A stretch of 27,555 nt of DNA from an uncultured Verrucomicrobiota bacterium (GCA_964629545.1 CAZVRY010000069.1:1-27555), one strand, 5' to 3'. Shown: positions 2,397 through 20,370, numbered from the stretch's first letter. The notes: generated by a model from the letters alone, not told the origin. Made by a program: numbers and translations.

Positions 2397-2477
2397 GCAC
2401 GCCACCTGCCGCGGAAGTCTGGGATCTCGATTCTGGTCTTTACATTCGCCGGCTTCAGGGCACATTCGCCCGCCGTT

Positions 2478-2594
2478 ATGGACAAATTCTGGAGCATTAT
2501 GACGATGCCGATCGGGGTGGCCCTCTGCTTCGGGCCGGCCATGGTGGTGTGGTGGCTCACGGAAGGCCGCAAGGCAGGCGGGAAGCGCCGCTGA
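2478..2594 (+). CDS. Hypothetical 38-aa small membrane peptide (MDKFWSIMTMPIGVALCFGPAMVVWWLTEGRKAGGKRR); alternatively a stop-codon read-through extension of the chitinase frame
   Basis: ATG 2478 to TGA 2592-2594. It is not in the ORF track, probably because it is below the length cutoff. It has one predicted TM helix followed by a KR-rich tail and high GC at codon third positions. It is in the same frame as the chitinase, separated only by the TGA at 2394-2396, and there is no stop between 2397 and 2591. No obvious SD. Confidence 0.2.
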   Translation: MDKFWSIMTMPIGVALCFGPAMVVWWLTEGRKAGGKRR

Positions 2595-2696
2595 ACGTGC
2601 GCGCCTCCGGCCCGACCCCACCGCCGCGCCCCCCGCTCCCGACCCGGGGCCTGCACCCAGCCCGCCCCGGCTGAACCCATCCTTCTCAGGGGCACA

Positions 2697-3332
2697 TCAG
2701 GTCGCGGACCTGGGCTGGCTTCCCTTTCCCGCCGCCCCCTTTCGCCAACACCCGTCGAGGTGGTCATCGACCAATCCCATGGCCTGCATGAAGGCATAGA
2801 GGGTCGTGGGGCCCACATACGTCCACCCGCGTCGCTTCAGCTCCTTGGAAAGCGCTTTCGACTCCGGCGATTGGTTCAAGCCGGCGAGGAGGGCGCGGGT
2901 GAGGCGGGGCGGGCGCGAGCCGGGGGCCGGCTGAAACCGCCACACCAACGCGGCCAGCGAACCGCACTCGGCCGCCAACTCGCAGGCGCGGCGGGCGTTG
3001 TTGAGGGTCGATTCGATTTTGCCCCGATGCCGCACAATCCCGGGGTCCCCCAGCAACCGTTCCACCTCGCGCGTTCCCCATCGGGCCACCTCCCTGAAAT
3101 CGAAGCCGGCGAAGGCGCGGCGGAAGTTCTCCCGCTTGCGCAGGATGGTGAGCCAACTGAGCCCAGACTGGAAACCCTCGAGGATGAGCTTCTCGAAGAG
3201 GCGGCGGTCGTCGGTGACGGGGACGCCCCATTCGTCGTCATGGTAGGCGATGTAGTCGGGGGCGTCGGCGCACCACCAGCAGCGTGAGCGCCCGTCCGCA
3301 CCCGTGACGAGACCTGAATCGGCGTCGGCCAT
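2697..3332 (-). CDS. tag: DNA-3-methyladenine glycosylase I (Tag)
   Basis: This is the 3' 636 nt of ORF 2697..4988(-), giving 211 aa from MADADSG... It matches the Tag signature YIAYHDDEWGVPV...LFEKLILEGFQSGLSWLTILRKRENFRRAF. ATG at 3332 (plus-strand CAT 3330-3332). The upstream part of the 763-aa ORF is an out-of-frame overlap with the CocE gene. Confidence 0.9.
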   Translation of the reverse strand: MADADSGLVTGADGRSRCWWCADAPDYIAYHDDEWGVPVTDDRRLFEKLILEGFQSGLSWLTILRKRENFRRAFAGFDFREVARWGTREVERLLGDPGIVRHRGKIESTLNNARRACELAAECGSLAALVWRFQPAPGSRPPRLTRALLAGLNQSPESKALSKELKRRGWTYVGPTTLYAFMQAMGLVDDHLDGCWRKGAAGKGSQPRSAT

Positions 3333-3508
3333 ACAGGGCGAGAGAATGGAGAAAGCGCGACGACGCGGCAAGGCTGGGCAACGCGTGCCGCCAGGTCCCC
3401 CGCATGGTGTCCAGCCTTTAGGCGGTCTGGGGTGGACGGCACGCTGAAGCGTGGACCCCCAACGACGCGAAGGCACTCGCCGACCGGTTCGACCGGCGGC
3501 CCGGCCTC

Positions 3509-5158
3509 TCACCGTGCCGGCGGCCCGACGGGCAGGCTGATCTGACTTCCGTCCCTTCCGACCGACACCGTCAACTCGGCCCGACGCGGGTCGCCGGTGC
3601 GCGGCGGCTGGCCATTCTGCCGGTTCATTTCCAACGCGGGCGAACTGCTGGAGGCCACGTGCACCCGGAGGCGATGACCGCGATTGAAGACGATGCTGGT
3701 TGGCCAGAGCGGGACGGTCAGGGCCACCGTGTCTCCCGGCTGCATCGGTTCTTCCCGGTCTAATCCGTTCCGCAGTCGCAGCCGCCACGCCCCCTCGCAC
3801 ACCATCATGGAACGTCCGTCCGGATACACATCGCACACGCGCACGATCAGGTCGGCGTCGGGCGCGTCGCAGCGCACGTGCAAGCGGGCCGAAGCATGCC
3901 CGGTCACTTCCAACGGTTCCGCCAGGGCGGCCGTCGTGAAGACCAACACATCGGCCCGGCCTTCGATCGGGCGCTGATCCTTGGGGCCGGCCGGGATGGT
4001 CAGTTCGTACCCCCCCACGGTGGGGACCGGTTGGGCGGGGTCGCTCGTGTAGGACAGGCTGCCGGCCGGGCCAGGATCGTCGAAGGAGGCCGTGCGATCG
4101 GCGCGCAGGTGCAGCACCTTGGTCCTGACCTCCGCCGGCGGCCACACGGGGGACGTCCGCCACACGTTGCCGGGCGCCCCGGCTTCGCCCGCTGCCCCCA
4201 TCACGTAGTAAGTGACGGCCGGCGCGGTCAACAGCCCGTTGGCCTCCCCCTGCAGGGTCGCCGCAAACCACTTCCACGAATCGTGCACGTCGCCCGGCGT
4301 CCGGTTCGCCCCCGGGAACTCCAGGTCGCCCGCTTTCTCCTTCAACACGCCATGCGTCCACGGGCCCATGACCAGTTTCTGCCGGCCCCGCGCGGCCGGT
4401 CCGCCGTGATGCTGATACCCCTGAAAGGCCTCCACCGTGGCCTGCGCGAAGATGTCGAACCAGCCGCCGATATGCACCCCGGCCGCGTTGACGTTGTCGT
4501 AATGCGCGATCATCTCGCGGTCCCGCCAAAAGCGCGTGAGCGGGTAATTGGTGGTCCATCGATCCAGGGCGTGAGGCGCGAACTTGGTCTGCCGAAGCCA
4601 ATCCTCGGTCATCGCCTGGCGGAAGATGCCGCCCCGGTAAATGCTCTCGCGGAAGAGGCTGGGCGTGCCCACGGTGAGATGTTGGCTGACCAGGTTCGCG
4701 GCCCCCGTCCCGGCCAGCAGATACTGGGTGATCGCGCCCGCCGAGCCGCCCCAAGTCCCGAGTCGTCCGTTCGACCACGGTTGTTGCGCGATCCACGCCG
4801 CGGTGTCGTAGCCGTCCCACTGGCCCTCTGCCTGGCCGTCGGCATCGAACGGCAAATTCTCCCCTTCCGAGGCGAACCGCCCGCGGGTGTCTTGGGCCAC
4901 GAAGACGTAACCGCGGCGATTGGCCTCGGGGCCGAGCCCGGCGCCCAGGGCCTTGTTGTAGGGGAAACGGAGCAAAATGACCGGCCACCGGCCCTCACCC
5001 TCGGGCACGTAGACGTCGGTGGCCAGCTTGGTGCCGTCGCGCATCGCCACCTGGTGAGTTTGCGGAGCGGCGGCGTGCGAGGAACAGGGGCTCAGGGTGG
5101 ACAAGAGCAGGCAGGCACAGCCCAGCGAGAAGCGCATCCAGGGAGTCATGGCCGCCAT
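3509..5158 (-). CDS. CocE/NonD-family alpha/beta hydrolase (peptidase S15 / X-Pro dipeptidyl-peptidase-like), secreted
   Basis: ORF 3509..5206(-). Family-typical N-terminus MRDGTKLATDVYVPEGEGRWPVILLRFPYN plus QDTRGRFASEGE. Signal peptide MRFSLGCACLLLSTLSPCSSHAAAP. The track start at 5206 is a TTG. ATG candidates are at 5158, 5149 and 5140, and I chose 5158. Confidence 0.85.
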   Translation of the reverse strand: MAAMTPWMRFSLGCACLLLSTLSPCSSHAAAPQTHQVAMRDGTKLATDVYVPEGEGRWPVILLRFPYNKALGAGLGPEANRRGYVFVAQDTRGRFASEGENLPFDADGQAEGQWDGYDTAAWIAQQPWSNGRLGTWGGSAGAITQYLLAGTGAANLVSQHLTVGTPSLFRESIYRGGIFRQAMTEDWLRQTKFAPHALDRWTTNYPLTRFWRDREMIAHYDNVNAAGVHIGGWFDIFAQATVEAFQGYQHHGGPAARGRQKLVMGPWTHGVLKEKAGDLEFPGANRTPGDVHDSWKWFAATLQGEANGLLTAPAVTYYVMGAAGEAGAPGNVWRTSPVWPPAEVRTKVLHLRADRTASFDDPGPAGSLSYTSDPAQPVPTVGGYELTIPAGPKDQRPIEGRADVLVFTTAALAEPLEVTGHASARLHVRCDAPDADLIVRVCDVYPDGRSMMVCEGAWRLRLRNGLDREEPMQPGDTVALTVPLWPTSIVFNRGHRLRVHVASSSSPALEMNRQNGQPPRTGDPRRAELTVSVGRDGSQISLPVGPPAR

Positions 5159-5207
5159 CCAAACCCAGCCCCATCGGAAAGTCACGGCGGGAATCGAGCT
5201 GAGCAAA

Positions 5208-5275
5208 GGGCGGACGGAAAAAGAACGACGACGGTTGCGTGCGGGTCGTCGCCGGTCCTTCCGTCCGCCCCAGAA
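5208..5275. promoter_or_regulatory. Long perfect-stem hairpin (12-bp stem GGGCGGACGGAA / TTCCGTCCGCCC, about 40-nt loop with sub-palindrome) in the leader of the CocE gene, downstream of the flotillin-ATPase operon
   Basis: The inverted repeat is read directly: gggcggacggaa starts at 5208, ttccgtccgccc ends at about 5275, and cgacgacgg / cgtcgtcg lies in the loop. On the minus strand the stem is followed by TTTGCT, which is a weak U-tract. It could be a terminator for the upstream operon or a leader structure. Confidence 0.3.
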
Positions 5276-5383
5276 CCCAAACAGATCGTCGAACCGCTTG
5301 CGCGCATCCGAACGGATCTGGTTCCGAACTCTAGCAAGGGGCGTGCCGGGTGACCCAGGGGGCCGCGATCATGGCCCCTCCCC

Positions 5384-5500
5384 AGCCATTCTCATTGTGA
5401 ACGAATGAGTCCCCCTCTCCCTTTCTCCCTCTCCCCAACCCCTCTCCCTCGCTTCGCTTTCAAGGGTCGGGGAGAGGGATGGGGTGAGGGGACGGTTCAT
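5384..5500. repeat. MITE/REP-like palindromic repeat, copy R1 (short variant; family-B-like terminus AGCCATTCTCATT fused to family-A core)
   Basis: Shares the core tcccctctccc...ctctccccaaccc...cgcttcgctttcaagggt(c/t)ggggagagggatggggtgagggg with copies at 18027-18173 and 23726-23872. Internal palindrome ctctccccaaccc/gggtyggggagag. Confidence 0.55.
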
Positions 5501-5650
5501 GGAGAGGAGCCAGGGTTCAGCCTTGAGCCTCTTGCCGTGAGGTCCATTGCGCGCTCCGCCCACGGCCTGAGGAAGGACGGCGGGAATCGATCCGGGTCGC
5601 CCTCGCGTCCGTTCTTGGGATCCGCCTGTCCCACGAATGGGACCTGCCTC

Positions 5651-6472
5651 CTATCTCGTCCCGGTCAAGTTGGGCATCCGCTTGAACCGGTCCAAAGCCC
5701 CGCGCCGCCAGTCGCCAGGCTCGGCCGGGGCAGGAGGCGCGCTCGGCGACGGGGCGACGGGAGTTGGCGTGGGCATGGCCGTGGGGGCGGGGGGTGTGGC
5801 GGGCGGCGCGGGGGCGGGGATCGGCCCGGGCTCGGAAGGCCGCCGCGGCTCGAAGAACGAGCTCGAGGCGAAGGGGGAGGCCGCGGGGGCGGCCGCCGGG
5901 GCGGGGGCGGCCGCGGGGATGGAGGCGGCGGCGAGCACCTGGGTCTCCTCTTCCTCGGGCGCGCTCCGCCAGCAGACGCGCACGGAGGGCGCGGGTCCCG
6001 CGCTGACGAGGATTTCCTCGCAGCCGAGATGCTGGAGGTCCACCTTGTCGGCCAGTCTGCCGGCCTGGACGACGGCGCTCAGCATTGCGTGCACGGTGCG
6101 TTGGCTCTGGGACCCCGACAGGATCAAGCGCAGCCGGGCCTCCGGGACCTCTTCCACCCACGCCAAACGGGCGACCAGGCGCCGGTTGAGGCCGAGTTCC
6201 ATGTCGACGCCGATCAACTCGAAGCCGGCCTCGCGGAAGGTCTCGGCGCCGGCATCGATTTCGCGCAAGGTCTGGAGCAACCGTTCCTCGGTGTCCGCCT
6301 GCAGCCCGGACACGGCCGCCATCACGTCGGCCCGCATCTGTTGGACTTGCCCCGTCGTGCTGACCAGCGCCTCCCGGATATCGGCCACCTTGGGCGGGAC
6401 GCTCTCGATGATCTGTTGGACCTGGGCGGCCTTCTCGCGCAGGGTTTGCAGGCGGCGGGCGTATTTTTTCAT
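5651..6472 (-). CDS. Hypothetical 273-aa protein: about 170-aa predicted helical/coiled-coil N-terminal domain plus Pro/Ala-rich low-complexity C-terminus. Third gene of the flotillin-ATPase operon.
   Basis: ORF 5651..6472(-), ATG at 6472. Only 12 nt separate it from the stop of the giant ATPase gene (6485). The N-terminal composition is globular/amphipathic (MKKYARRLQTLREKAAQVQQIIESVPPKVADIREALVSTTGQVQQMRADV...), unlike the R/S/G-rich junk in the overlapping plus-strand ORFs. The C-terminus is AAPAPAAAPAAS...PAPAPPATPPAPTAMPTPTPVAPSPSAPPAPAEP. Confidence 0.6.
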   Translation of the reverse strand: MKKYARRLQTLREKAAQVQQIIESVPPKVADIREALVSTTGQVQQMRADVMAAVSGLQADTEERLLQTLREIDAGAETFREAGFELIGVDMELGLNRRLVARLAWVEEVPEARLRLILSGSQSQRTVHAMLSAVVQAGRLADKVDLQHLGCEEILVSAGPAPSVRVCWRSAPEEEETQVLAAASIPAAAPAPAAAPAASPFASSSFFEPRRPSEPGPIPAPAPPATPPAPTAMPTPTPVAPSPSAPPAPAEPGDWRRGALDRFKRMPNLTGTR

Positions 6473-6484
6473 GGGACGCAGGGG

Positions 6485-9400
6485 TTAGCCGCCGGTCCGG
6501 GACTCGGGACCGGGCGTGGGGGGAGGGGTCTGGCTTTGCTCGAGGGCCTGGTGGAAGCGTTCGAGGAAGGCGCGCTCGTTGGTGAGCATTTCCTGGGTCA
6601 GTTCGATTTCGACCGTGCCTTGCTTGGCCCGGGCCACCAGCAGGTCCTCGACATTCCGCAAGTGATCCCGCTGTCGCACCGCCGCGTCCTTGAGCGTGGC
6701 CAGCGTGCTGTGGATCATCTCCATCTCGTGCGACAGGCTGCTGACCTTCTCGGCCATGGAACCGGTGTGGACGGCGGTGATGGCCCGGCTGAGGTCTTCG
6801 CGCAACGCGCGCAATCCTTCCTGGAGCTGGGCCGCGAGCATCGAGCCCTCGCGTTCTCGCGCCAACACGGGCGGCGTGGCCGGGCTGGCCAGGTTGCGCT
6901 CGACCGCCGCCCGCAGTTGCTCGAGTTGGTGGGCCAGGGGACCGAGGTCGACGGCGAGCGAGGGCGTCGGAGACGGTGGCAGGGCGGCCGGCGAGGCCCG
7001 CCCCTGCTCGAGGGCCGAGCCGAGCCGGTCGAGCGCCTGCCCCAGCGGAGTCCAATCCACCACGACCTGGGGCGGGGCCGCGGGCGGCGGGGGCGTCCGC
7101 AGGCCTTGGACCACCGCCGCGCTCAGTTGCTCGAGACCGTGGCTGAGCGGAGCCAGGTCCACAACCACGGGCGTCGGCGCCTTCGCCAGTTGGCGGTCTA
7201 AGGTCTCTTGGATCGCTTGCAGACCGGACTGGAAATTGGCCAATTGCCCGACGATGCGTCCGACGCTGTCCTGCTGGCCGCCGCCGCCCATGAGGAGGTT
7301 GCGTTGGAAGGTCTGCTTGATGGCCTCCCAGCGCGCCTGTTCCTCGGGGGTCTGCCAAGCGAAGAGGGTTTTGAATTTGAGCAGGTTCGCCTCGGCCCCC
7401 GTGGTGAGGGTCTGCGATTCATTGCGGTAATGATCGAGGAGCAACGCCCGGACCTCGTCGTCGTTCATGATGGCCACGACCTTTTCGGCCAGGCGATTCA
7501 TGTTGCGATAGGAACCCTGCAACTTGAAGGGCGGCTCGGTCCGGAACTCGTCGGCCTGGGCGGCGGAGTGGATGTACTCCTGGTTGACCCGCAGGACCAC
7601 CTCGCGGAGGGCGACCAGTTTTTTCATCACGGCCAGGATCTCCTCGACCTCCTGGGACGAGTAGCTGGCCTCGAAGGCGATGCCCTCGCGCGCGCCGGTC
7701 TCGGCCATCTGTATGAAGGCGCGCACGTCCTGTTGGCTCTTGTTGGCGAGGGGGGCAAGGACGGGGTTCGAGGTGATGGCGTTCTCGAGGTAGCTGGCCT
7801 TGAAGCGGTCGGCGCTGCCGCCGATGATATCGCCCAGGTTGTAGGTGTCGGCCCGGTTCGCGAGCATGTCGGGCAGCTTGAACTTCTGGCCGCTCTCGGT
7901 GTAGGGGTTGCCCGCCATCACCACCACCACCTTGCGGCCCCGCAGATCGTAGGTTCGCGGGCGCCCCTGCCAGACCCCCTCGATCTTGCGCTGGGCGTCG
8001 CACAGGGAGATGAACTTCTGCAGGAACTCGGCGTGGCAATGCTGGATGTCGTCCACGCACAGCATCACGTTGTCCCCCATCTCCAGGGCCAGGTTCAGCT
8101 TCTCGATTTCCTCGCGCGCGGCCGCGTTGGGCGCTTCCTCGGGGTCCAAGGACGTCACCCCATGTCCGAGGGCGGGTCCGTTGACTTTGACGAAGATGAT
8201 GCCCAGCCGGTTGGCGAGGTATTCCATGAGGGTGGTCTTGCCGTAGCCCGGGGGTGAGATCAGCAACAGCATCCCCATCAGGTCCGTGCGCTTGGCGTCG
8301 CCGGCCGCCCCGATTTGTTTGGCCAGATTGTCGCCCACCAGCGGCAAGTAGACCTCGTCGATCAGTTGGTTGCGCACGAACGAGGTCAGCACCCGCGGCT
8401 TGAACGCCTCCAGCCGCAACTGTTCGCGCGCCCGGTCCAGGAGGCGCTGCTTGATCTGTTGGAACCGGGTGAAACGCGGCGCCACCGCGCGCTCGAACCG
8501 CTCCAGCCGCCTCCGGTAATCCAGGTAATCGAAGGTGTAACGGTTGCCCGCGATCCGCCCATGCACCCCCTTCATCCCCTCCAACTCCCGGCGCAGCCCC
8601 GCCTGCACCACCGTGTAACGCATCGTCTCCCCGCAAAACACCAGGGCCGCGACCATTTCGACGAAGGGAAGGCCGGCCGGCTGCTCGAGGAGGAACCCGC
8701 GCACCCAGTCGCGCACCAACTGCCATTCGCTGGCGGGCGAGGCGGCCAAGGCCTGCCGCGCCTCGACGAAGGTGCGCTCGCTCCCCTTGGTCACCAGGTG
8801 CTGGCGGAAGGCGCGGGCCAAACGCTCCGCCTCGTCGCTGACGGTGAAGGCGTCGCCCGTGATGGATTCGTAGAACAGGTACTCCGCCGCCGGCGCCGCC
8901 ACCTCGGGCGGGAACAGGCCGGTGTCCTGGACGAACCCGCCGAGCAACCCCTCCAGCCCGGCCAGGTAGTCCCGCTGCACCTCGTCGCCCGGGAACAGCC
9001 GGTTGCGCGCGGCGAACCCCTTGAGCTTGGCCGCCCACAGGGACTTGGTTTCCGCGGGGCAGAAGCGCAGCCAATAGACCACCGCACAGGCTCGCGCCGC
9101 GGGATGGTAGCGCGCCAACTGCAACGCCACGTGGGTCGTGAGCAGGGCCTGGAAAATCTGCGCCCCGTCCAGGTCGTGCACCCCTTTGGTGTAGCCCTCC
9201 TGGTAGCGTCCCGCCATGAACTCCTGCACCAGGACCAGGCGTTCCTCCTCCGATTTGGCCAGCGCTTCCGCCCACCGGCAGCGCGCGGGGGCGGACAGCT
9301 CGGAGGGCGCGGCCGGGACCGGCGCGGCGCCCTGGCCGAGATGTTGCAGCAACTGCCAGGCGAGATATTCCGCCCGGTAAACGTCCGGATTCTCCGACAC

Positions 9401-12181
9401 GACCTCCTGATCCCACACGTCCCGGATGGCCAGCAGTTCCTCGTCGCGAATCGGCTCGAAGTATTTCGTGCTCGTGAGGTGCAGACACGGCCCCTCCTGG
9501 CGGAGCACCACCGTGAGGTCGAGGGGCTGGGTATTGATGTTGAACCGGTGGCGCCCGAGTTGGATCACGGCCGCCCCGCCCACGAAGAGTTCCTGCCGGT
9601 CCTTGAGTTGGCGCACGGCCTCCTGCTGCACGCTCTTGAGCCGACCCTGCAAATCATCCGCCTTGATCGAGTCCCCCAAGGCCAGCAGGGCGGCGATGAT
9701 CTCGCGGACCTTGGCGATCATGAGGTCCGAGGCCATGTAGGTGTTGATTTCCTCCACCCGCTGGAAGGTGCCCAGCCGGTTCTGGATCACCTTGAGGATC
9801 CGCTCCGCCGCGGTCATTTGGGCGGACGCCTTGCGGTTGCGCTGTTCGACCAGCGCCACTTTCCGCTGCTCGAAGGCCTCGTAGAGCGACGCCCGCTTCT
9901 CCGAAAGCTGGACCGTGTATTCCTCGAAATCGGCGAAGGCCCCCTCGAGTTCCTCCAGTTGCACCGTGATGCGGTTCAGGTACTCGTCGCACTTGGCCGG
10001 GGTGTCGCAGAGGTCCAGGTAACTCGAGGCCGACTGCCCCAGCAGTTTGACCTGGGCCGCAAACTGGGCCGCTCCCTCGCTCGCCACCAGCGCTTGCAGC
10101 CGCTTCTTCAGCCCCGCCTTGACCTGGTTCAGGGTGGCGTAAATCGAGGTGATGCCGTCGATGATCCGGGTCGCCTCGGTCGCGTCCTCGATCCGGAGGC
10201 TGTTCACGATCTCGATCAGCATCTCGAGCTCGCCCCCCGCCTCCGCCACCGCTTTCTCGATCTTCCGTCCCTCCGCCACTTTGCCGACCTGGTCGACGGC
10301 GGCCAGGTGTTCCTGGGCCTGCTTGCGATACGGTTCGAGCGCCTCGGGTTTGAGCAGGAACGTGACGCAGGCGCGGGCCAGTTCCTCGCCTTGGGCCACC
10401 ACCGTCCCCTCGAGCGCGTCCACCTGCGCCAGGTCGACGTAGCGCGCTTCCTTCAACGTGATGAGCTCGCCGCGCAGGTGGCGGAGGGCGGCCAGGTTGA
10501 CCACGAACTCGTTCAGCGTGCGGAAGCTGGCCCGGCGGATGGTGTGGCCGCGCTCCTCGCAACGGCGCCGCGCGTCCTGCACCCGCTGGATCGCCTCGCG
10601 CTGGAGGCGGCGCACCTTGTCGAACTCCTCCACCGCTTGATCGGCGGTCTGGCGCACCTGGCGCAGCGACTCGTGCAGCCCGAAGCCCTCCTCGCTGGCC
10701 AGCCACGGATAGGCGTCCAACATCGTGCCGCACCGCCGCACAACGTCCGCATACAACTCGGCATAGGGGGTCGGCCGGCCGATCAGGGTCAGCACCTCGT
10801 TGCCCTCGGCCAGACAGCGCACCACGTCCTTGTTTCCCACCTGGTAGAGGAAGGCCTTGCGCTGGCCCTCGGGCTCATAGCCGGGCTGGAAGAACGGCGT
10901 CTGCCGCAACTGGATCGTGTGATGCTTCTGCGGTTCCTCGTCGCCCCGGAACAACAGCAGGTGGCCATCGGCGAAGAGGGAGAACCCGTGGCAGGTGATG
11001 CGCTCCTCGACCTTCTGCGTGATCAGCCGGTAGGGCATCAGCACGTAGAGCCCCGATTCGCGATGGTAGAAGACGAAGAGCGAATCCTCCCCGCCCGGCC
11101 CGTGGACCACCCGCTCGAGGCGGAGATTCTGCTCGCGGCTCTCGAACCGCTTGAGCTCGCCGGTCCCGAGGTAGTAGCCGTCCGGGAAGATCAGCCCATG
11201 CCCCTCCGGCAGGAGCGCGCACGATTGGCCGATCGTGTCCACCCGCACGACCGTCTGCTGCTTCTCGTTGAAGATGAAATGCCGCGCCACCTCCTCCTTG
11301 TAGGGGCGCACCCGCAGCAGGATCAGGTGCTCGAAGATGGCGTAGGCGATCTCGGCGTCGTCCACCTTCTGGTTCGCATCGTCCACCGGCTCCGAGTAAA
11401 TCCCCTCCCCCGTGCTGGTGTTGTCCTCCACCTTGATGGTCAGGTCGCCGCTCACGCACTCCACGAACAGGCGGTCCTCGATCGAGACATGCGGATGGTC
11501 CCCGTAGCGGAACGACTCGCGGTCGGGGGTTTGCCAGCGGAACTCGTGCCGGGGCGGGAAGCCGATTTTTCGGAACTCGGTCTCGGCCCGGCTGTCCAGG
11601 AACCGGAGTTGTCCGCCCTGGAAGGCCCATTTGAAGACGGCCACGTCCTCCAGGCCCGCCCCCACCTGGAACACCATGTAGAGCTTGCCCTCGATGAGCG
11701 AGAACTTGGCGAACGCCGCCCGCTCATAGATGTTGTAGAGGCGCTTGAAGTCGGTGAGGAAGGTCCGGTCCTGGAGGGGCGCCAGTTCGGCCTCCTTGAA
11801 GGCCCCCGACTCGGCATCGCGCTGGTAAATCGCGAACACGTCGCCCAGCTCGATCTCCTTCTTGAGCCCGAACTGGACGTTGAAGCCGAAGAGGAACCGC
11901 CCCCGCCCCAGCGGCACCATGTCGCGCGGGACACAGTTGTGCGCGGTGGTCACGCGGTCGGACTGGAGCAGTTTGAACTCCACCGACCCGAAGACCTCGC
12001 GGCGCCGCGCATCCAGCCGGGCCATCCCCTCCCGCAGGGCCGTGCCCTGCACTTGCAGCCGTTGCCGGATGATCTCGTAGGTGGCGCTGCCGAGGGCCTG
12101 CGCCGGCGAGGGGGCCGCGGGGGCCGCCGCCGGGGCCGCCGCCTCCGCCGACCCAGCGGGCTGAGGAGCCGGATCCGCCAT
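6485..12181 (-). CDS. Giant (1898 aa) multidomain P-loop AAA+ ATPase with coiled-coil regions; function unknown
   Basis: ORF 6485..12181(-), ATG at 12181, 8 nt after the flotillin stop. Walker A LLLISPPGYGKTTLMEY (nt approx 8233-8253). Walker B VMLCVDDIQH (nt approx 8044-8062). Sensor-like VVVVMAGNPYTESG. Pro/Ala-rich N-terminus MADPAPQPAGSAEAAAPAAAPAAPSP. Long heptad-like helical stretches. Three imperfect approx 35-aa repeats VDLxPLxxxLEQLxxAV...P-rich encoded at nt approx 6890-7175. Confidence 0.85.
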   Translation of the reverse strand: MADPAPQPAGSAEAAAPAAAPAAPSPAQALGSATYEIIRQRLQVQGTALREGMARLDARRREVFGSVEFKLLQSDRVTTAHNCVPRDMVPLGRGRFLFGFNVQFGLKKEIELGDVFAIYQRDAESGAFKEAELAPLQDRTFLTDFKRLYNIYERAAFAKFSLIEGKLYMVFQVGAGLEDVAVFKWAFQGGQLRFLDSRAETEFRKIGFPPRHEFRWQTPDRESFRYGDHPHVSIEDRLFVECVSGDLTIKVEDNTSTGEGIYSEPVDDANQKVDDAEIAYAIFEHLILLRVRPYKEEVARHFIFNEKQQTVVRVDTIGQSCALLPEGHGLIFPDGYYLGTGELKRFESREQNLRLERVVHGPGGEDSLFVFYHRESGLYVLMPYRLITQKVEERITCHGFSLFADGHLLLFRGDEEPQKHHTIQLRQTPFFQPGYEPEGQRKAFLYQVGNKDVVRCLAEGNEVLTLIGRPTPYAELYADVVRRCGTMLDAYPWLASEEGFGLHESLRQVRQTADQAVEEFDKVRRLQREAIQRVQDARRRCEERGHTIRRASFRTLNEFVVNLAALRHLRGELITLKEARYVDLAQVDALEGTVVAQGEELARACVTFLLKPEALEPYRKQAQEHLAAVDQVGKVAEGRKIEKAVAEAGGELEMLIEIVNSLRIEDATEATRIIDGITSIYATLNQVKAGLKKRLQALVASEGAAQFAAQVKLLGQSASSYLDLCDTPAKCDEYLNRITVQLEELEGAFADFEEYTVQLSEKRASLYEAFEQRKVALVEQRNRKASAQMTAAERILKVIQNRLGTFQRVEEINTYMASDLMIAKVREIIAALLALGDSIKADDLQGRLKSVQQEAVRQLKDRQELFVGGAAVIQLGRHRFNINTQPLDLTVVLRQEGPCLHLTSTKYFEPIRDEELLAIRDVWDQEVVSENPDVYRAEYLAWQLLQHLGQGAAPVPAAPSELSAPARCRWAEALAKSEEERLVLVQEFMAGRYQEGYTKGVHDLDGAQIFQALLTTHVALQLARYHPAARACAVVYWLRFCPAETKSLWAAKLKGFAARNRLFPGDEVQRDYLAGLEGLLGGFVQDTGLFPPEVAAPAAEYLFYESITGDAFTVSDEAERLARAFRQHLVTKGSERTFVEARQALAASPASEWQLVRDWVRGFLLEQPAGLPFVEMVAALVFCGETMRYTVVQAGLRRELEGMKGVHGRIAGNRYTFDYLDYRRRLERFERAVAPRFTRFQQIKQRLLDRAREQLRLEAFKPRVLTSFVRNQLIDEVYLPLVGDNLAKQIGAAGDAKRTDLMGMLLLISPPGYGKTTLMEYLANRLGIIFVKVNGPALGHGVTSLDPEEAPNAAAREEIEKLNLALEMGDNVMLCVDDIQHCHAEFLQKFISLCDAQRKIEGVWQGRPRTYDLRGRKVVVVMAGNPYTESGQKFKLPDMLANRADTYNLGDIIGGSADRFKASYLENAITSNPVLAPLANKSQQDVRAFIQMAETGAREGIAFEASYSSQEVEEILAVMKKLVALREVVLRVNQEYIHSAAQADEFRTEPPFKLQGSYRNMNRLAEKVVAIMNDDEVRALLLDHYRNESQTLTTGAEANLLKFKTLFAWQTPEEQARWEAIKQTFQRNLLMGGGGQQDSVGRIVGQLANFQSGLQAIQETLDRQLAKAPTPVVVDLAPLSHGLEQLSAAVVQGLRTPPPPAAPPQVVVDWTPLGQALDRLGSALEQGRASPAALPPSPTPSLAVDLGPLAHQLEQLRAAVERNLASPATPPVLAREREGSMLAAQLQEGLRALREDLSRAITAVHTGSMAEKVSSLSHEMEMIHSTLATLKDAAVRQRDHLRNVEDLLVARAKQGTVEIELTQEMLTNERAFLERFHQALEQSQTPPPTPGPESRTGG

Positions 12182-12189
12182 GGCCAGCC

Positions 12190-14391
12190 TTAGCGCGAGA
12201 CCGTCTTCGCCAACACCGTGGTCGCGGCCGTCTCCGCCAACCCCTGCTCGCGGGCCAGGCCCAGCGCCGACTGCAACACCGCCTGCAACCCCTGGTCCGC
12301 CGTCGAGGCCATCAGCTTGGTCAGCAGCGCGGCGATGGTCAGGTTTTTCAGGTCCTCCGATTTAAGGCCGAAGTCGGCCACCCACTGCCGGAGCTGCGTC
12401 TTGAAGCGCTCGGGATCGCCGGTGAAGAAGGTGTTCTTGATGTCGGTGAGGGTGCCGCTGCTGGCCACCAGCCGGTCCACCGCCTTGCCGCCGCTGACCG
12501 CCTTCACCACCTTCTCGAAGAAGTCGTTCTCGCCGCCCACGATCTCGATGTGCGCGCTCTTGAGCGCCTCGCCGACCAGGGCCGAGTGGGCCGAGGCGAT
12601 GTCGCGCTGGACGTGGATGGCGGCCAGTTCGACGTCGCGCTCCTTGGCCAGGCGGAGCCGGAATTCCTCATGCTGCTGACCGGCCTCGTGCAGGAGCTTC
12701 ATGGACTTGGCCTTCTCCTCGATGCCCTTGGCCTCGGCCAACATCTTGGCCTCCGTGCCCTTGGCCTCGGCCAGGAGCTTCGCCTCGATGCCCGTCGCCG
12801 TCGCCAACTCCTTGTCCTTGGTCCCTTCGGCCTCCGCCTCGGCCTGGCTCTGCGTCACCTCCGCGGTGGAATCGCCCTTGGCCTTGATGACCTCGGCCTC
12901 GGCCAGCCCCAGCTCCTTGATGGCCGACGCATCCGCCTTCTTGGCCCCGGCCTTGGCCGTGATCACCTTGGCCTCGGCCAGCCCGGGGGCCGCTTCCTTG
13001 GCGGCAAACCCCTCGGCCTCCTGCTCCATCGCGTGCCGGCGGCGCTCGGACGCCTTGGCCTCCGCGTCGGCCAGCGTCTGGATGCGCTCCGCCTCCCGCA
13101 GCGCCGCCTCGCGGGCGGCCTCGGCCTCGATGACCGTCTTGATCTTGGCCGCCTCGGCCAGGTTGCGGTCCGCCTCCTTCTGGGCCTCCGCGGCCACCAC
13201 TTTCTCGACCTGATCCCGCTTGGCGTTCATCTCCGCCTCGATCAACGTCACCTCGCGAACCCGCTCGGCCGTCATCCGCGCCTCGATGTTGGTCTTCTCC
13301 TCCTGCTGCTGCACGACGGCTTTCTGTTCGGCGACGACGATGGCGCGCTTCCGTTCCACTTCGACTCCGGCTTCGGCCACCTTGGCCTCCTTCTCCATCT
13401 CGGCCAGCGCCACGGCGCGCTCGCGGCGGACCCGGGCCTGGTCGCCTTCCTGAATCGATTCCTGCTCGAGCCGCTGCTTCTCCTTCTTGACCGTGTATTC
13501 GCGCTCCTGGACGGCCCGGTTCATGTCCTCGGTCCGCAGCCGGATCGACTCCTCGGCCTCGAGGCGTTTGCCCTCGACCTCCTGGCGGCGGCCCTCGATG
13601 ACCTTGCGCGCCTCGGCCTCCTCGTTGGCCTTGACCTCGGTGATGGCCCGCGTCTGCTTGGCCGTGTCTTCCTCGTTGCGCCGCTTCTGCTCGCGCCGGG
13701 CAATGTCGGCGTCGGCGTTCTCCTTCTCGATCTGCACGCCCGCCCGCTGCGAATGCTCGTTGGCGATGACCCGTTCGCGCTGGGTGATTTCGGTGATTTT
13801 CTTGATGCCCTCGGAATCGAGGACGTTGTTGGGGTCGTGCTGGTCGAGCGGCGTCTGTTCGAGGTAGTCGATGGCCACGTCCTGGAGGAGGAACCCGTCC
13901 AGGTCCTTGCCGATCGTGTTTTGGATCTGGTCGCGGAACTTGATGCGCTCAGTGAACAGCTCGTGGAACTCCATCTGTTTGCCCGCCGTCTTGAGCGCCT
14001 CGGAGAACTTCGCCTCGAACAGTTCGCGGAGCTGGGAGATGTCCGACACCCGCTCCGGCGTCAGCATCTGCGCCACTTTCCGCACGCACTCCTCGTTGGC
14101 ATCCACCCGGATGTAGAACGCCACAATGATGTCGGCGCGGATGTTGTCCTTGCAGACCAGGCCGTCCTTCCCCTTGCGCTGGATCTCGAGCTTCTTCACC
14201 GAGATGTCGACGATGTGATAGGTCTGGACCATCGGGACCCGCACCATCCAGTCGAACGCCACCTTCAGCCCGCCCCAGCCCGTCTTCACGCCGGCCCGGC
14301 CCGGCTCGATCTTGCGAATGCAGAACAAGGACAGCGCGGCGGCACAGGCGCCGGCCACCAGCACGAAACCGCCAAGGAGATAGGGCCACAT
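12190..14391 (-). CDS. Flotillin-family SPFH/band-7 protein (YqiK/FloT-like), 733 aa: N-terminal TM helix, SPFH domain, long Glu/Ala-rich coiled-coil (EA-repeat) region and conserved flotillin C-terminus
   Basis: ORF 12190..14391(-). N-terminal TM MWPYLLGGFVLVAGACAAALSLF. SPFH motifs GVKTGWGG...YHIVDISVKKLEI...GKDGLVCKDNIRADIIVAFYIRV, which resemble E. coli YqiK. EA repeats AEAKVITAKAGAKK...LAEAKGTEAKMLAEAKGIEEKAK. The overlapping plus-strand ORF 12550..14397 is an antisense artefact. Confidence 0.9.
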   Translation of the reverse strand: MWPYLLGGFVLVAGACAAALSLFCIRKIEPGRAGVKTGWGGLKVAFDWMVRVPMVQTYHIVDISVKKLEIQRKGKDGLVCKDNIRADIIVAFYIRVDANEECVRKVAQMLTPERVSDISQLRELFEAKFSEALKTAGKQMEFHELFTERIKFRDQIQNTIGKDLDGFLLQDVAIDYLEQTPLDQHDPNNVLDSEGIKKITEITQRERVIANEHSQRAGVQIEKENADADIARREQKRRNEEDTAKQTRAITEVKANEEAEARKVIEGRRQEVEGKRLEAEESIRLRTEDMNRAVQEREYTVKKEKQRLEQESIQEGDQARVRRERAVALAEMEKEAKVAEAGVEVERKRAIVVAEQKAVVQQQEEKTNIEARMTAERVREVTLIEAEMNAKRDQVEKVVAAEAQKEADRNLAEAAKIKTVIEAEAAREAALREAERIQTLADAEAKASERRRHAMEQEAEGFAAKEAAPGLAEAKVITAKAGAKKADASAIKELGLAEAEVIKAKGDSTAEVTQSQAEAEAEGTKDKELATATGIEAKLLAEAKGTEAKMLAEAKGIEEKAKSMKLLHEAGQQHEEFRLRLAKERDVELAAIHVQRDIASAHSALVGEALKSAHIEIVGGENDFFEKVVKAVSGGKAVDRLVASSGTLTDIKNTFFTGDPERFKTQLRQWVADFGLKSEDLKNLTIAALLTKLMASTADQGLQAVLQSALGLAREQGLAETAATTVLAKTVSR

Positions 14392-14601
14392 AGGTGAGGT
14401 GGGTTCAGGATGTTCGAGTCGTTAGCATGGCTCCATCCCGGCCGCTCCCGCGCAACGCCCGCCCCGGCGAACGACCGGATGAGTTGTGACGCTCCCTGAA
14501 GTAGCAAACGCCCGCCAACCGGGCCAATACAATTCTCGCGCGTTTTTCCCACCGCCCCCCGGCTCCCGGGCGGCCGCTGCGCTCCGCCGCGCCCCCGCCC
14601 C

Positions 14602-15906
14602 CTACATCCGCAACACCAGGGCGGCCAGGCCCAGGAAGAAGAAAAACCCGGCCACGTCCGTCACCGTCGTGAGGAATATGCTCGAAGCCAGCGCCGGATC
14701 GACCCGGCACGCCCGCAGGCCCAGCGGGATCAAGACCCCCGAGAGCGCAGCCGCCACCTGGTTGAGCACCATGGCCGCCCCCGCCACCAGGCCCAGCGCG
14801 AGGCTGCCTTTCCAGAGATAACCCGCCAGCCCCACGATCAGCCCAATGGCCAGGCCGTTCGCCCAGCCCAAAATCAGCTCCTTGCCCAGCGCGCGCCGGC
14901 CCTCCCCGGGCGGCAGTTCGCCCAGGGCCAAATCGCGAATGATAATCGTCAGCGTTTGCATCCCGGCGTTCCCGCCCTGGCCGGCAATGATCGGCAGGAA
15001 AATCGCCAGCGCGGTCCACTGCGCGATCGTGCTCTCGAACACCCCCACCACCGCCGCCGCCGCAAAGGCGGTCCCCAGATTCACCAGCAACCAAGGCAGA
15101 CGCCGCCGCAGCGACTTCGTCCACGGCGTCAACACCCGCTCCTCCCCGGACAAACCAACCATCAACTGCATGTCCTCGGTCGCCTCCTTGCGGGCAATCT
15201 CCAGGGCGTCGTTGGCCTTGACCACCCCCACCAACCGCCCCTCCGCATCCAGCACCGGCAACCCCAGGTAATGATAATGCTCGAACTGCCGGGCCAGTTC
15301 CTCCTGGTCCGCCTCCACCCGCACCGCCTTCACCTCCCGATTCATGATCTCGCGCAACCGCCGGTCGGGCCGCCGAAAGACCAGGTCCCGCAGGCTGACG
15401 ATGCCCACCAGCCGCTGCTCCGCGTCGGTCACGTAAAGGTAGGCGATGTCCCGAGAGGGCGCGTCGGCTTCCCGGCGACGCAGCACCTCGCGGGCCTGCT
15501 CGATCGTCATGTCCTCCGCCAGCGCGATGAAGCGATTGGCCATGATCCCCCCGGCTGTGTCCTCAGGATAACGCAGGAGCGTCCGCACCGCCCCGGCCTG
15601 CTCCGCCCCCAAGCGGGCCAAGACCTCCCGACGCAACCCCGGCGGCGCCTCCTGGAGCACGTCGACGGCGTCCTGCGGGGGCATGCGCTGAAGGAACTGG
15701 GCCAGGGTGGCGGGTTCCATGGCGGCCACCAGGCCGCCGACCTGTTCCTGGTCCACCTCGGCCAGCGTGGCGGCCGCCTGCTCGGGAGGCAACTGTCCCA
15801 GCACCCGGCCGGCTTCCTCCGTGCTTAAGCGCTGCAAATGATCGGCCAGGTCCGCGGCATGCAGGCCCTGGCACTGTTCCAGCGTCAGCGGTTCGAGTTC
15901 GCTCAT
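14602..15906 (-). CDS. mgtE: Magnesium transporter MgtE (N-domain, CBS pair, 5-TM channel domain)
   Basis: ORF 14602..16011(-). The track start runs 35 codons into a MITE (peptide ...PSFKMRMADPRV). The true start is most likely MSELEPLTLEQ at nt 15906 (plus-strand CAT 15904-15906). MgtE hallmarks are GGIMANRFIALAEDMTIEQAREVLRR, the CBS region and the C-terminal TM region with GQGGNAGMQTLTI. Confidence 0.9.
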   Translation of the reverse strand: MSELEPLTLEQCQGLHAADLADHLQRLSTEEAGRVLGQLPPEQAAATLAEVDQEQVGGLVAAMEPATLAQFLQRMPPQDAVDVLQEAPPGLRREVLARLGAEQAGAVRTLLRYPEDTAGGIMANRFIALAEDMTIEQAREVLRRREADAPSRDIAYLYVTDAEQRLVGIVSLRDLVFRRPDRRLREIMNREVKAVRVEADQEELARQFEHYHYLGLPVLDAEGRLVGVVKANDALEIARKEATEDMQLMVGLSGEERVLTPWTKSLRRRLPWLLVNLGTAFAAAAVVGVFESTIAQWTALAIFLPIIAGQGGNAGMQTLTIIIRDLALGELPPGEGRRALGKELILGWANGLAIGLIVGLAGYLWKGSLALGLVAGAAMVLNQVAAALSGVLIPLGLRACRVDPALASSIFLTTVTDVAGFFFFLGLAALVLRM

Positions 15907-15960
15907 GCCCCGAGCTTGGCAAGAAGTCGAGCCCTTGGGAAGGACCCGGACCCGCGGATC

Positions 15961-16103
15961 AGCCATTCTCATTTTGAAACTCGGACGGCCCCTCACCCGG
16001 CCTTTGGCCACCCTCTCCCCGCGCCTTTTATGCCAGAAGGCAGCCGAGGCGCGGGGAGAGGGAAGGGGAGAGGGGGACTTCTTCTTTCAAAATGAGAATT
16101 GCT
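15961..16103. repeat. MITE-like palindromic repeat, copy R2 (family B): near-perfect 19-bp terminal inverted repeats AGCCATTCTCATTTTGAAA / TTTCAAAATGAGAATTGCT enclosing the internal palindrome CCCTCTCCCCGCGCC...GGCGCGGGGAGAGGG
   Basis: Terminal inverted repeats (TIRs) and the internal palindrome are read directly. The element is flanked by the 10-bp direct repeat CCCGCGGATC (15951-15960 and 16105-16114). This could be a target-site duplication or part of a tandem unit. Confidence 0.65.
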
Positions 16104-16114
16104 GCCCGCGGATC

Positions 16115-16235
16115 AGCCATTCTCATCTTGAAAGGAGGACTCCCCTCTCCCCTTCCCTCACGCCCCCTGGGCTGCCGTCGGCGGTCAACGGCGCGGGGCG
16201 AGGGTGGCCAGTGGCCGGGTGAAGGGCTCTTCAAA
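16115..16235. repeat. Second, tandem, partly truncated family-B MITE-like copy (R3)
   Basis: Starts AGCCATTCTCATCTTGAAAGG. The interior gagggtggccagtggccgggtgaagggctcttc is the reverse complement of the R2 interior cggcccctcacccggcctttggccaccctc, and the internal palindrome is ccctcacgcccc...ggggcgaggg. The right terminus is degenerate (cttcaaagg). Confidence 0.5.
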
Positions 16236-16267: not shown

Positions 16268-16678
16268 ATGCGTGAGCGGATTTGCGAATCGACGCACTGC
16301 GCTTATTGCTTGACGGACCCTGGATCGAGAACCTGGGTTGCGCCCCAAACCGCTGCGCAACATTGCCACCGCCTTGGGTCCTGGGTATCGTTGCCTCCAG
16401 TGAGCACTCACCGCCAAGCGTTCTGGGCCAGGCATCGGGGCTTGGTCTGGTCGAATCCGGACGCCACGGATGCCGTGCACATCCGGGCGGCGTTGCTGCA
16501 CCCTCGTTTCAGCCAATTGCTCGCGATTGCCGCGGAATTCGGGCCGCCGCGGTTGAGCAGGGAATGGGCCGCACTGAGTGCGGAAATGCCCGCGGAGACA
16601 AACCGCGTGCGTCCCGCGGTCGAGCGTGCGCTCCGCAATATCGAGAAGGGATTCGCGGATGCTGCTGCCCGACACTGA
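16268..16678 (+). CDS. Possible AbiEi-like antitoxin/regulator partner of the downstream AbiEii toxin. The start is uncertain and the protein is probably shorter than the 136-aa track ORF.
   Basis: The ORF ends 20 nt inside the start of the AbiEii-family gene, the short overlap typical of toxin-antitoxin pairs. It lies in a lower-GC stretch. The N-terminal 50 residues of the track ORF look non-protein-like, and I recognise no wHTH motif. Confidence 0.3.
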   Translation: MRERICESTHCAYCLTDPGSRTWVAPQTAAQHCHRLGSWVSLPPVSTHRQAFWARHRGLVWSNPDATDAVHIRAALLHPRFSQLLAIAAEFGPPRLSREWAALSAEMPAETNRVRPAVERALRNIEKGFADAAARH

Positions 16679-17372
16679 ACGCGTGTGGCAATTCCTGCAG
16701 AGGCAGCCAGCGCTGGCAGGCTTTGTCCTGGTGGGCGGCTCGGCCCTGGCGCTCCGGTTGAAGCACCGGATCAGCGAAGATCTCGACCTGGTTCTCCCCG
16801 CGCAGAAACTGCCTCGGGCTCCGCTGGATGTTCTGCGCCTGGCGGCTCAAGCGGAGAATCTGGAATTTCGACTGCTGGACGACGAAGCTGCCGTCATGGC
16901 GTTCGCCGAGGGCGGTCTTGAATTGCACGATTACCAGCAGAACTACCTGGTCAACGACCGCATTCGGCTGTCGATGTTCACGCCAGAGCCATCTCTGGCC
17001 AAAGTGCTCACCGGGCCGCCCGAGCCGAGGGTCCGAGTCGCGACATTGCCCGAGCTCTTCAAGTCCAAGTGCCTTGTTTCGGCCCTCCGTTCGAAAACCC
17101 GCGATTGGTTCGACCTGTATGTGCTGCTTCGAAACCATGGCTTCACCGCCCTGGATTACCGGACCGCCTTTCTCGAAGCCGGCCTTGAACCCCAATGCGA
17201 CATCGGCTTGAGCCGCCTGTGCAGCGGCCGGCCGCAAGCCGATGACGAAGGTTACCGTCACCTCATGCCCGACCCGCCCTCGCTGGCCGAAATGAGGGCC
17301 TTCTTCACCGCGATGCGCGACCAACTTGAACAAACACTCGCCGCCGAAGTCGCCTCCCGACGGCCCAGGTGA
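16659..17372 (+). CDS. abiEii: AbiEii/AbiGii-family (DUF1814) nucleotidyltransferase toxin of a type IV toxin-antitoxin / abortive-infection system
   Basis: ORF 16578..17372(+). Probable start MLLPDTERVWQF at 16659. Nucleotidyltransferase motif LVGGSALALRLKHRISEDLDLV (GG[ST]AL...RxSxDLD). Second AbiEii hallmark KSKCLVSALRSKTRDWFDLYVLL (K..A..R.K.RD.[YF]DL). Confidence 0.75.
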   Translation: MLLPDTERVWQFLQRQPALAGFVLVGGSALALRLKHRISEDLDLVLPAQKLPRAPLDVLRLAAQAENLEFRLLDDEAAVMAFAEGGLELHDYQQNYLVNDRIRLSMFTPEPSLAKVLTGPPEPRVRVATLPELFKSKCLVSALRSKTRDWFDLYVLLRNHGFTALDYRTAFLEAGLEPQCDIGLSRLCSGRPQADDEGYRHLMPDPPSLAEMRAFFTAMRDQLEQTLAAEVASRRPR

Positions 17373-17389: not shown

Positions 17390-17501
17390 GACACCAGCCT
17401 TTCGCGCGCTGGCGGGCGAACCATTTCAATGCGAGGTCATGCCGCTCGTGGCTGGGCCAGCGCAAGGCGAGGAGCAGGTTGGTGTCGAGCAGGTAGCCCT
17501 T
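17390..17501 (-). pseudogene. vapC: VapC (PIN-domain toxin) N-terminal remnant, truncated where the abiE module begins; no ATG start
   Basis: Minus-strand frame 2 reads RKGYLLDTNLLLALRWPSHERHDLALKWFARQRAKGW, the canonical VapC N-terminus with the first catalytic Asp in LLDTN. It then runs into sequence antisense to abiEii (CRVAPAVS..., junk). The codon before KGY is AGG rather than ATG. Confidence 0.5.
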
Positions 17502-19199: not shown

Positions 19200-19216
19200 C
19201 AAGCTCGCTTCCGGAG

Positions 19217-20368: not shown

Positions 20369-20370
20369 GG

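Follow-up and report, generated by a model that had tools for sequence, protein, structure and literature searches.

Gene Organization of the Operon

A stretch of DNA from an uncultured Verrucomicrobiota bacterium (27,555 bp, 67% GC, single contig; hereafter the window) was analysed, and this study concerns a three-gene operon on its minus strand. The nearest relatives of the window are Verrucomicrobiota of the Limisphaerales/Pedosphaerales type. Gene 1 (12190-14391) encodes a YqiK-type flotillin of 733 amino acids (aa), gene 2 (6485-12181) encodes an AAA+ ATPase of 1898 aa with the families DUF3686 and DUF7902, and gene 3 (5651-6472) encodes a soluble, lineage-specific protein of 273 aa; all three were defined by open reading frame (ORF) and translation. 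The locus is a trimmed, clade-specific variant of a catalogued class of flotillin–AAA+ operons, in which YqiJ has been lost and gene 3 has been gained. The initial annotation, made from the window alone, had presented the pairing of a flotillin with a giant ATPase as undescribed, but Ravi et al. (2024, mSystems, PMC11237479) already report it. Because the same layout is listed there, the pairing is to be regarded as described, in purely computational work.

Closely spaced and co-directional, the three genes are a real operon. The gap between the flotillin and ATPase genes is 8 nt (GGCTGGCC) and that between the ATPase gene and gene 3 is 12 nt, exactly as the initial annotation had given them when it described three coupled minus-strand genes. 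No terminator-like site was found between the three genes on the coding strand. The GC content at third codon positions was 0.89-0.93 in all three genes, which matches the coding signature of the 67% GC contig. The presumed promoter region is the 210-nt intergenic stretch at 14392-14601 (minus strand), between the stop codon of an MgtE transporter gene and the flotillin start. A search of these 210 nt for sigma-70 and sigma-54 sites gave nothing convincing. A sigma-54 promoter, as proposed for bacA of Pseudomonas aeruginosa, was considered here; the TGGC...TTGC match at 14504-14517 is 1 base short of the canonical spacing and was not accepted. In the following, coordinates within the three genes refer to the minus strand, and labels of the form Lnnn denote the related loci compared with the window.

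The YqiK-Type Flotillin

The product of gene 1 was identified through E. coli YqiK, because the Pfam and NCBIfam searches were empty (zero matches even at E<=10) and the PDB sequence search returned a marginal match to the QmcA coiled coil and nothing else. BLASTP showed 32% identity to YqiK over 456 aa (E 6e-39), and hhalign scored 99.95% for the pair, the match extending from the anchor through the SPFH domain into the coiled coil. The Band_7 model of Pfam matched one of eight family members (E 9e-11), the window flotillin itself being unmatched. Homologues are named 'flotillin family protein' or 'YqiK' in public sources, and the window flotillin shows 33-39% identity to its counterparts upstream of the ATPase gene in Hymenobacter, Pseudomonas pQBR103, Streptomyces and Deinococcus. 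The protein had been called an unambiguous flotillin with an SPFH domain and an EA-rich coiled coil; this is correct by the comparison with YqiK, though the protein is invisible to Pfam.

Four parts of the protein were distinguished. Residues 1-28 (14308-14391) are an N-terminal hydrophobic membrane anchor; they hold the only Kyte-Doolittle windows above 1.6 and align with the N-terminal segment of YqiK. Approximately residues 29-205 (13777-14307) constitute the SPFH/band-7 domain, which aligns to the SPFH region of YqiK and is the most conserved block in the alignment of ATPase-linked flotillins (GLVCKDNIRADI, AKFSEALK, AIDYLEQTP). It is followed by an Ala/Glu-rich coiled coil (approximately residues 206-600, 12592-13776; A 20%, E 19%) that aligns with the YqiK coiled coil to about residue 446. 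The C-terminal domain (residues 601-733, 12193-12591) is subfamily-specific and conserved among ATPase-linked flotillins. Residues 540-733 (approximately 190 aa) did not align with the 'Flot' C-terminal domain of YqiK (hhalign 1.2%), and the Flot model PF15975, which YqiK matches at E 6e-41, did not match the window flotillin. The C-terminal domain might be the site that contacts the ATPase.

The Giant AAA+ ATPase

Gene 2 encodes an exceptionally long protein with no hydrophobic segment. Residues 49-491 matched PF12458 (DUF3686; E 1.5e-161, 538 bits against a cut-off of 25), residues 613-696 matched PF25472 (DUF7902; E 5e-26, 91 bits against a cut-off of 26), and the generic models AAA, AAA_5 and AAA_22 matched residues 1303-1432. 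No solved structure related to the family was found at E<=1e-4 in a PDB profile search; the weak PDB sequence matches of the AAA+ core were to p97 and RuvB. The family has more than 2000 database relatives. The window ATPase is collinear over approximately 1650 aa, at 39-50% identity, with homologues from Bacteroidota, Gammaproteobacteria, Actinomycetota and Deinococcota, and the mean identity between distant phyla is approximately 48%.

The N-terminal part was modelled with AlphaFold (residues 1-960; predicted local distance difference test (pLDDT) 78.6) and showed a helix at 32-64, then an all-β domain, and then very long helices at 444-865. The DUF3686 region (residues 49-491, 10709-12037) corresponds to an N-terminal β-propeller, which was all-β at 74-427 in the model with pLDDT mostly 75-90. 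Foldseek matched this β domain to β-propellers, including the clathrin terminal domain, prolyl oligopeptidase and paraoxonase (E 1e-4 to 1e-6). Residues 492-865 (9587-10708) were modelled as a long-helix/coiled-coil region, in which DUF7902 (613-696) occupies 10094-10345; the helices at 444-865 span 20-58 residues, with pLDDT 81-93 from residue 481. According to the model, residues 866-1260 (8402-9586) contain a small β domain, with strands at 872-902 of low confidence, and a conserved helical domain at approximately 970-1250 with pLDDT mostly 82-97. The conserved motifs in this part include HRFN.NTQPLDL and RYQEGY.KG.HD.D.

The AAA+ module occupies residues 1261-1640 (7262-8401), and its motif coordinates were verified by translation. 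These are the Walker A motif GYGKTT (residues 1312-1317, 8231-8248), the Walker B motif VDDIQH (residues 1376-1381, 8039-8056), the sensor-1 motif GNPYTE (7895-7912) and the candidate arginine finger ANRAD (7847-7861). The Walker A lysine, the two Walker B aspartates, the sensor-1 asparagine and the ANRAD arginine were invariant in eight sequences from five phyla. In all eight, the Walker B motif thus carries Asp-Asp in place of the usual Asp-Glu, and this could mean slow or regulated hydrolysis. In the C-terminal model (residues 860-1898; pLDDT 73.9) an AAA+ fold was seen at approximately 1320-1630, and within it a β-hairpin (residues ~1399-1412) separates Walker B from sensor-1. Foldseek gave weak matches of the core to MCM, RuvB, the second nucleotide-binding domain (NBD2) of ClpB, and NorQ/CbbQ (E >= 2e-3). 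The modelled hairpin suggests that the protein is an AAA+ ATPase of the pre-sensor-1-hairpin type and not of the classical clade.

The remaining tail (residues 1641-1898, 6488-7261) is variable, being absent or different outside the clade, and was modelled with low confidence. It contains three repeats of approximately 35 aa (VDLxPLxxxLExL), which start at residues 1673, 1707 and 1744 (6911-7165). All elements of the initial annotation were located: a giant multidomain protein, a single central P-loop core (GYGKTT/CVDDIQ) and C-terminal repeats, with one AAA+ core. The gene 2 product is a soluble, probably active AAA+ ATPase with a protein-interaction propeller and a coiled coil.

The Lineage-Specific Third Gene

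In the gene 3 protein, the N-terminal residues 1-173 (5954-6472) are folded, and the tail that follows (5654-5953) is rich in Pro and Ala and bears two short motifs that are conserved. The protein is devoid of hydrophobic segments, and the 26 Pro and 23 Ala among 98 tail residues bear out the earlier description of a Pro-Ala-rich third protein. It had zero matches in Pfam and NCBIfam and no meaningful match in PADLOC. When 1.8 billion cluster representatives were searched exhaustively, only 197 clusters were found at E<=1e-3 and 60 at E<=1e-30; the relatives are 85-320 aa long (mostly ~250-300), with matches that start at the N-terminus of each relative. The composition of the tail varies, while the motifs SFFE.R and C-terminal ALDRFKKMP persist, and the F[KR]xMP core of the tail occurred in 105 of 140 representatives.

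Among the available loci, gene 3 is confined to the verrucomicrobial clade of the window. It lies directly 3' of the ATPase gene in L005, L006, L007, L009, L086 and L087-L089, and it is convergent to the ATPase gene in L010 and L011. The genes beyond it differ among contigs, and gene 3 stays at the 3' end of the ATPase gene. We infer that its product is an accessory subunit peculiar to the clade, which may serve as an adaptor docking through linear motifs. The idea that gene 3 is a diverged YqiJ, PspA or CesT/Tir protein was ruled out with hhalign (<=1.2%).

Conservation of the Flotillin–ATPase Pair

A survey of one genome for each species yielded at least 595 confirmed ATPase matches and 80 loci from at least 8 phyla. 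A flotillin homologue on the same strand, no more than 2.6 kb upstream of the ATPase gene, was found in 65 of the 68 loci that had more than 3 kb of upstream DNA, so the adjacency is conserved in unrelated taxa. The pairing recurs in at least 10 bacterial phyla and was found in Verrucomicrobiota, Planctomycetota, Bacteroidota, Desulfobacterota, Clostridia, Kiritimatiellota, Omnitrophota, Fibrobacterota, Actinomycetota, Deinococcota and Gammaproteobacteria. The three exceptions (L021, L022 and L058) have unrelated upstream genes and no evident alternative SPFH partner. Full-length ATPase homologues (38-50% identity, tblastn) also occur on annotated plasmids of Hymenobacter, Streptomyces, Nonomuraea, Deinococcus, Proteus, Halomonas, Pseudomonas fluorescens (pQBR103), Photobacterium and Vibrio. 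All four plasmid loci inspected, from four phyla, carry a gene for 640-720 aa directly upstream of the ATPase gene, which is annotated as flotillin, SPFH or hypothetical.

The linkage of the two genes is real and ancient. As a gauge of co-evolution, the identities of the flotillin and the ATPase to the window pair gave a Pearson coefficient of 0.87, but this value is driven by the close clade (Spearman 0.23). The giant protein did not prove to be a well-characterised family, as only DUFs and a generic AAA core were recognised and no relative has been solved. With the ATPase family uncharacterised and the flotillin adjacency conserved, neither outcome that the initial annotation had set against its own proposal occurred.

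Wider gaps between the two genes hold unrelated insertions, namely IS200-like transposases, an AbiEii gene and lipoproteins. On inspection of the sequences, an AbiEii-like gene lies between flotillin and ATPase in a Desulfococcaceae locus (L023, 8715-9383, plus strand), and IS200/REP-type transposase-like ORFs lie in the gap in a Saprospiraceae metagenome-assembled genome (L042, 5662-6186, plus strand) and in Roseibacillus (L062, 6802-7251, plus strand). The gap in L005 is filled by repeat-derived ORFs that resemble repeats of the window.

All ORFs around the ATPase genes were clustered into families and counted by locus. The ATPase was counted in 81 loci, the flotillin in 74, a YqiJ-like membrane protein (Pfam YqiJ_N) upstream of the flotillin in 56, PspA in 16, a CesT/Tir-like protein in 14 and a divergent regulator with a helix-turn-helix (HTH) and an S24 (LexA-like) domain in 14. 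Many genomes combine the pair in one operon with a YqiJ/NfeD membrane protein; in Bacteroidota and, going by published descriptions, in Pseudomonas aeruginosa, a CesT/Tir-like chaperone and PspA, the bacterial ESCRT-III, are added. A profile built from 56 YqiJ homologues matched neither the window nor L005-L011, and the PspA and Tir profiles had no match in the window; the clade has neither YqiJ nor PspA within 10 kb. The initial annotation set the pair against the usual NfeD/YqiJ partners of flotillins. A replacement of that partner by the ATPase holds in the clade of the window only, whereas a YqiJ-like gene is kept in 56 loci elsewhere. No downstream gene is conserved after the ATPase gene across phyla, and since the flanking genes are not conserved, the flotillin–ATPase pair itself, usually preceded by YqiJ, is the conserved unit. 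The genes flanking the operon in the window (MgtE, an S15 peptidase and the Tag glycosylase) were considered as conserved neighbours and rejected, as they recur in no other locus.

Two observations concern the composition of individual operons. In 14 Bacteroidota loci, including L016, L029, L033, L034, L043, L056, L066, L069, L072, L077, L079, L081 and L084, the gene with an XRE-type HTH and an S24 domain is divergent to a Tir-PspA-YqiJ-flotillin-ATPase operon and lies ~5-6 kb upstream of the ATPase gene; its product may repress the operon and cleave itself. In L002 (Pseudomonas fluorescens SBW25 pQBR103, 425 kb; 1-12178), the flotillin–ATPase pair directly follows a set of PspA/IM30, rhomboid, DUF2491, DUF350, DUF1190 and glutathionylspermidine-synthase-like genes. 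This set resembles the E. coli yjf operon and joins two PspA-linked modules that are separate in Ravi et al.

These neighbours bear on the name of the ATPase. The NCBI product name is 'DNA repair ATPase', and Pfam describes DUF3686 as 'ATPase involved in DNA repair'; if so, the flotillin adjacency would be incidental. The weak sequence and fold matches to RuvB and MCM, the LexA-like regulator of the 14 Bacteroidota loci and a Tag glycosylase gene ~2.4 kb downstream of the window operon would fit such a role. However, the RuvB and MCM matches represent the generic AAA+ core, with RuvB models reaching 18-22 bits against cut-offs of 282-299, and Pfam detected no DNA-binding, helicase-specific or nuclease domain. 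The Tag gene, the one repair gene near the operon, neighbours the pair at no other locus, and the conserved partners are membrane proteins. In the literature searched, DUF3686 and PF12458 are never mentioned, so the name has no traceable evidence behind it. We consider a role in DNA repair very improbable. The family is large, widespread and nearly always welded to a flotillin gene, yet misleadingly labelled, and correcting this label matters for annotation.

Genes and Repeats Flanking the Operon

The initial annotation had stated that the operon borders toxin and abortive-infection genes and miniature inverted-repeat transposable elements (MITEs). An AbiEii gene, a further nucleotidyltransferase gene and repeats are indeed present, but between them and the operon lies the MgtE transporter gene (14602-16011). 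The AbiEii-family nucleotidyltransferase toxin is encoded at 16578-17372 (plus strand; Pfam E 7e-17). It is followed by an ORF of 100 aa (17426-17728, minus strand), which has no family match and an N-terminus resembling a ribbon-helix-helix antitoxin, and by a DUF6036/DUF2204 nucleotidyltransferase gene (18669-19334, minus strand). The dispersed repeats of the window are MITE-like elements. They comprise a direct repeat of ~230 nt at 17771-17997 and 19624-20010 (94-96% identical), repeats of ~40 nt just upstream of the MgtE gene (15951-15991 and 16105-16145), and inverted arms of 50-63 nt (18069-18173 against 20230-20330). Farther on, in the region 19757-27478, lie genes for a NosL-like protein, for an ABC transporter ATPase together with a MacB/FtsX permease, and for a protein of the metallo-β-lactamase fold. 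A further gene there specifies a protein of 691 aa, whose middle domain is hydrazine-synthase-α-like (PF18582, E 5e-20). None of these genes appears related to the operon.

The AbiEii toxin and the other nucleotidyltransferase, 2-5 kb from the operon, raise the question of anti-phage defence, which the initial annotation had also put forward. Under such a reading of defence or abortive infection, the flotillin would sense phage-caused perturbation of the membrane, with the giant ATPase as effector or switch. A patchy distribution prone to horizontal transfer, which includes large plasmids and chromids in seven genera, the mean ATPase identity of ~48% between distant phyla, and the induction of PA3728-PA3732 of P. 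aeruginosa by phage infection (PMC12041424) are in its favour. On the other hand, PADLOC-DB v2 gave no significant match to the three proteins (best E 0.003-0.009, in coiled-coil, P-loop or low-complexity stretches), and a search of 2.9 million viral contigs found no relative. The Pfam search revealed no effector domain of the nuclease, protease, NADase or pore-forming kind. Defence genes do not recur as neighbours of the pair, and the AbiEii region of the window is no exception. The conserved partners are the envelope-stress proteins PspA, YqiJ and CesT/Tir, and phage-shock responses are induced by phages anyway. An anti-phage role is thus improbable in our judgement.

Proposed Function

The most likely reading in our view, at roughly even odds, is that the operon is a stress and remodelling module of the cytoplasmic membrane, in which a YqiK-type flotillin is joined by a dedicated giant AAA+ ATPase that would remodel flotillin (and PspA) scaffolds. 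In such a module, the flotillin would be anchored by its N-terminus and would build a large oligomeric scaffold on the inner membrane face. The ATPase would dock onto this scaffold via the propeller and the coiled coil. ATP would then drive the assembly, disassembly or remodelling of the polymers of flotillin and, where present, PspA when the envelope is under stress; the analogies drawn are with Vps4/ESCRT-III and HflKC/FtsH. In the clade of the window, YqiJ is missing and a soluble gene 3 protein with a disordered, motif-bearing tail is added; this protein would most likely be an adaptor or regulator that docks by its motifs, possibly on the propeller.

The same two proteins might serve another purpose. 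The flotillin scaffold could carry a chaperone or assembly factor for other membrane complexes, such as transporters and secretion machines, so that the ATPase would not remodel the scaffold itself. Chaperone-like roles in the assembly of sub-membrane complexes were proposed by Ravi et al. (PMC11237479). β-propellers often bind short peptides of clients, and the fold matches of the propeller include the clathrin terminal domain; the AAA+ relatives with a pre-sensor-1 hairpin, NorQ and CbbQ, are complex-maturation factors. Transporter genes also lie beside some loci, namely MgtE in the window and K+/ArsB transporters with a CBS protein in Streptomyces. However, no client gene is conserved beside the pair, and the flotillin is the sole universally conserved partner. 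We regard the chaperone role as possible and rather unlikely.

Several points weigh against remodelling of flotillin scaffolds by the ATPase. Neither YqiJ nor PspA is encoded within 10 kb in the window and its close relatives, and because PspA is absent from this range, any link to it in the window would act in trans. By sequence reading, the pore-loop position of the ATPase is without an aromatic residue, which together with the Asp-Asp Walker B makes a classical threading unfoldase mechanism uncertain. The AAA+ fold matches are weak and spread over several clades, and the contact of the ATPase with flotillin or PspA is assumed from analogy. In P. aeruginosa, deletion of the flotillin gene paFlo3 gave marginal phenotypes only (PMC13086221), and BacE of that operon is likened to the window ATPase by gene order, sizes and the label 'ATPase' alone.

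A narrower form of scaffold remodelling may be put forward tentatively, and we doubt that it holds in full. The giant ATPase would be a dedicated remodeller of flotillin cages, a bacterial counterpart of Vps4 or NSF for SPFH scaffolds, and short linear motifs would bring it in by way of its propeller; in the clade of the window, the gene 3 protein would supply SFFE.R and RFKKMP in its disordered tail and would replace the lost YqiJ/NfeD as adaptor or regulator. The flotillin–ATPase pair, for instance PA3728-PA3729 of P. aeruginosa or that of plasmid pQBR103, offers a tractable entry to the question of whether bacterial SPFH/PspA scaffolds are actively remodelled.

Comparison with Known Systems

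The operons catalogued by Ravi et al. (PMC11237479) consist of a flotillin, a β-propeller/coiled-coil AAA+ ATPase and YqiJ/YuaF, often with CesT/Tir-PspA, and were placed among the envelope-stress (phage-shock) systems. The window has the same two families in the same order and orientation, and the ATPase architecture described there agrees with the models and the fold search of this study. Table S3 of that work lists the Dokdonia layout, the HTH+S24 feature included, and this is the layout around the flavobacterial homologues of the window ATPase (42-45% identity). The window differs in that it has neither the CesT/Tir-PspA dyad nor YqiJ. Shortened operons that carry flotillin, YqiJ and, in some cases, the ATPase are reported there as widely distributed, so that trimmed forms are allowed for. 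The window also adds gene 3, whose family is absent from that paper. With the pairing itself already catalogued, the contribution of the window is a clade-specific variant and little beyond gene 3.

The 'biofilm-associated cluster' bacABCDEF of P. aeruginosa (PA3732-PA3727) is consistent with this layout. BacA is CesT/Tir-like (DUF2170), BacB is PspA-like, and BacC (PA3730) is a 23-kDa membrane protein of the short NfeD type (PMC2587700, PMC10948618, PMC13086221). BacD (PA3729/PA14_16180) is the 76-kDa SPFH protein PaFlo3, which is paired with the short NfeD (PMC13086221). BacE is PA3728, which is listed as 'ATPase' (PMC8190622), and BacF follows. The six genes form a single transcript, and a bacA mutant raises all six proteins together (PMC10948618). 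PA3728-PA3732 are induced together by phage infection (PMC12041424), and PA3731 (PspA) accumulates under osmotic shock (PMC2587700). The bac operon has six genes, PspA and a proposed sigma-54 promoter, whereas the window operon has three genes and no correctly spaced sigma-54 site.

The operons yqiJ-yqiK of E. coli and yuaF-floT of B. subtilis share the flotillin, which in the window is homologous to YqiK in its anchor, SPFH domain and coiled coil, and most relatives of the window locus keep YqiJ upstream as these operons do. They differ in that they contain no AAA+ ATPase, while the window has no YqiJ and its flotillin has a C-terminal domain of its own.

HflK/HflC-FtsH and Vps4-ESCRT-III can be compared by analogy only. 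HflK and HflC form an SPFH cage around the AAA+ protease FtsH in the inner membrane, and the likeness lies in an SPFH scaffold coupled to an AAA+ ATPase. FtsH, however, is a membrane-anchored protease of the classical clade without a propeller or coiled coil, whereas the window ATPase has no protease domain, and the homology of the two is limited to the generic AAA core. Vps4 is a small ATPase of the classical clade with an MIT domain and canonical pore loops. Like Vps4 with ESCRT-III, the window ATPase belongs to a family linked, here genomically, to a membrane-remodelling polymer, and Ravi et al. (PMC11237479) draw the Vps4/ESCRT-III parallel for PspA-linked ATPases. In contrast to Vps4, the window ATPase has 1898 aa, an Asp-Asp Walker B motif and a β-hairpin before sensor-1.

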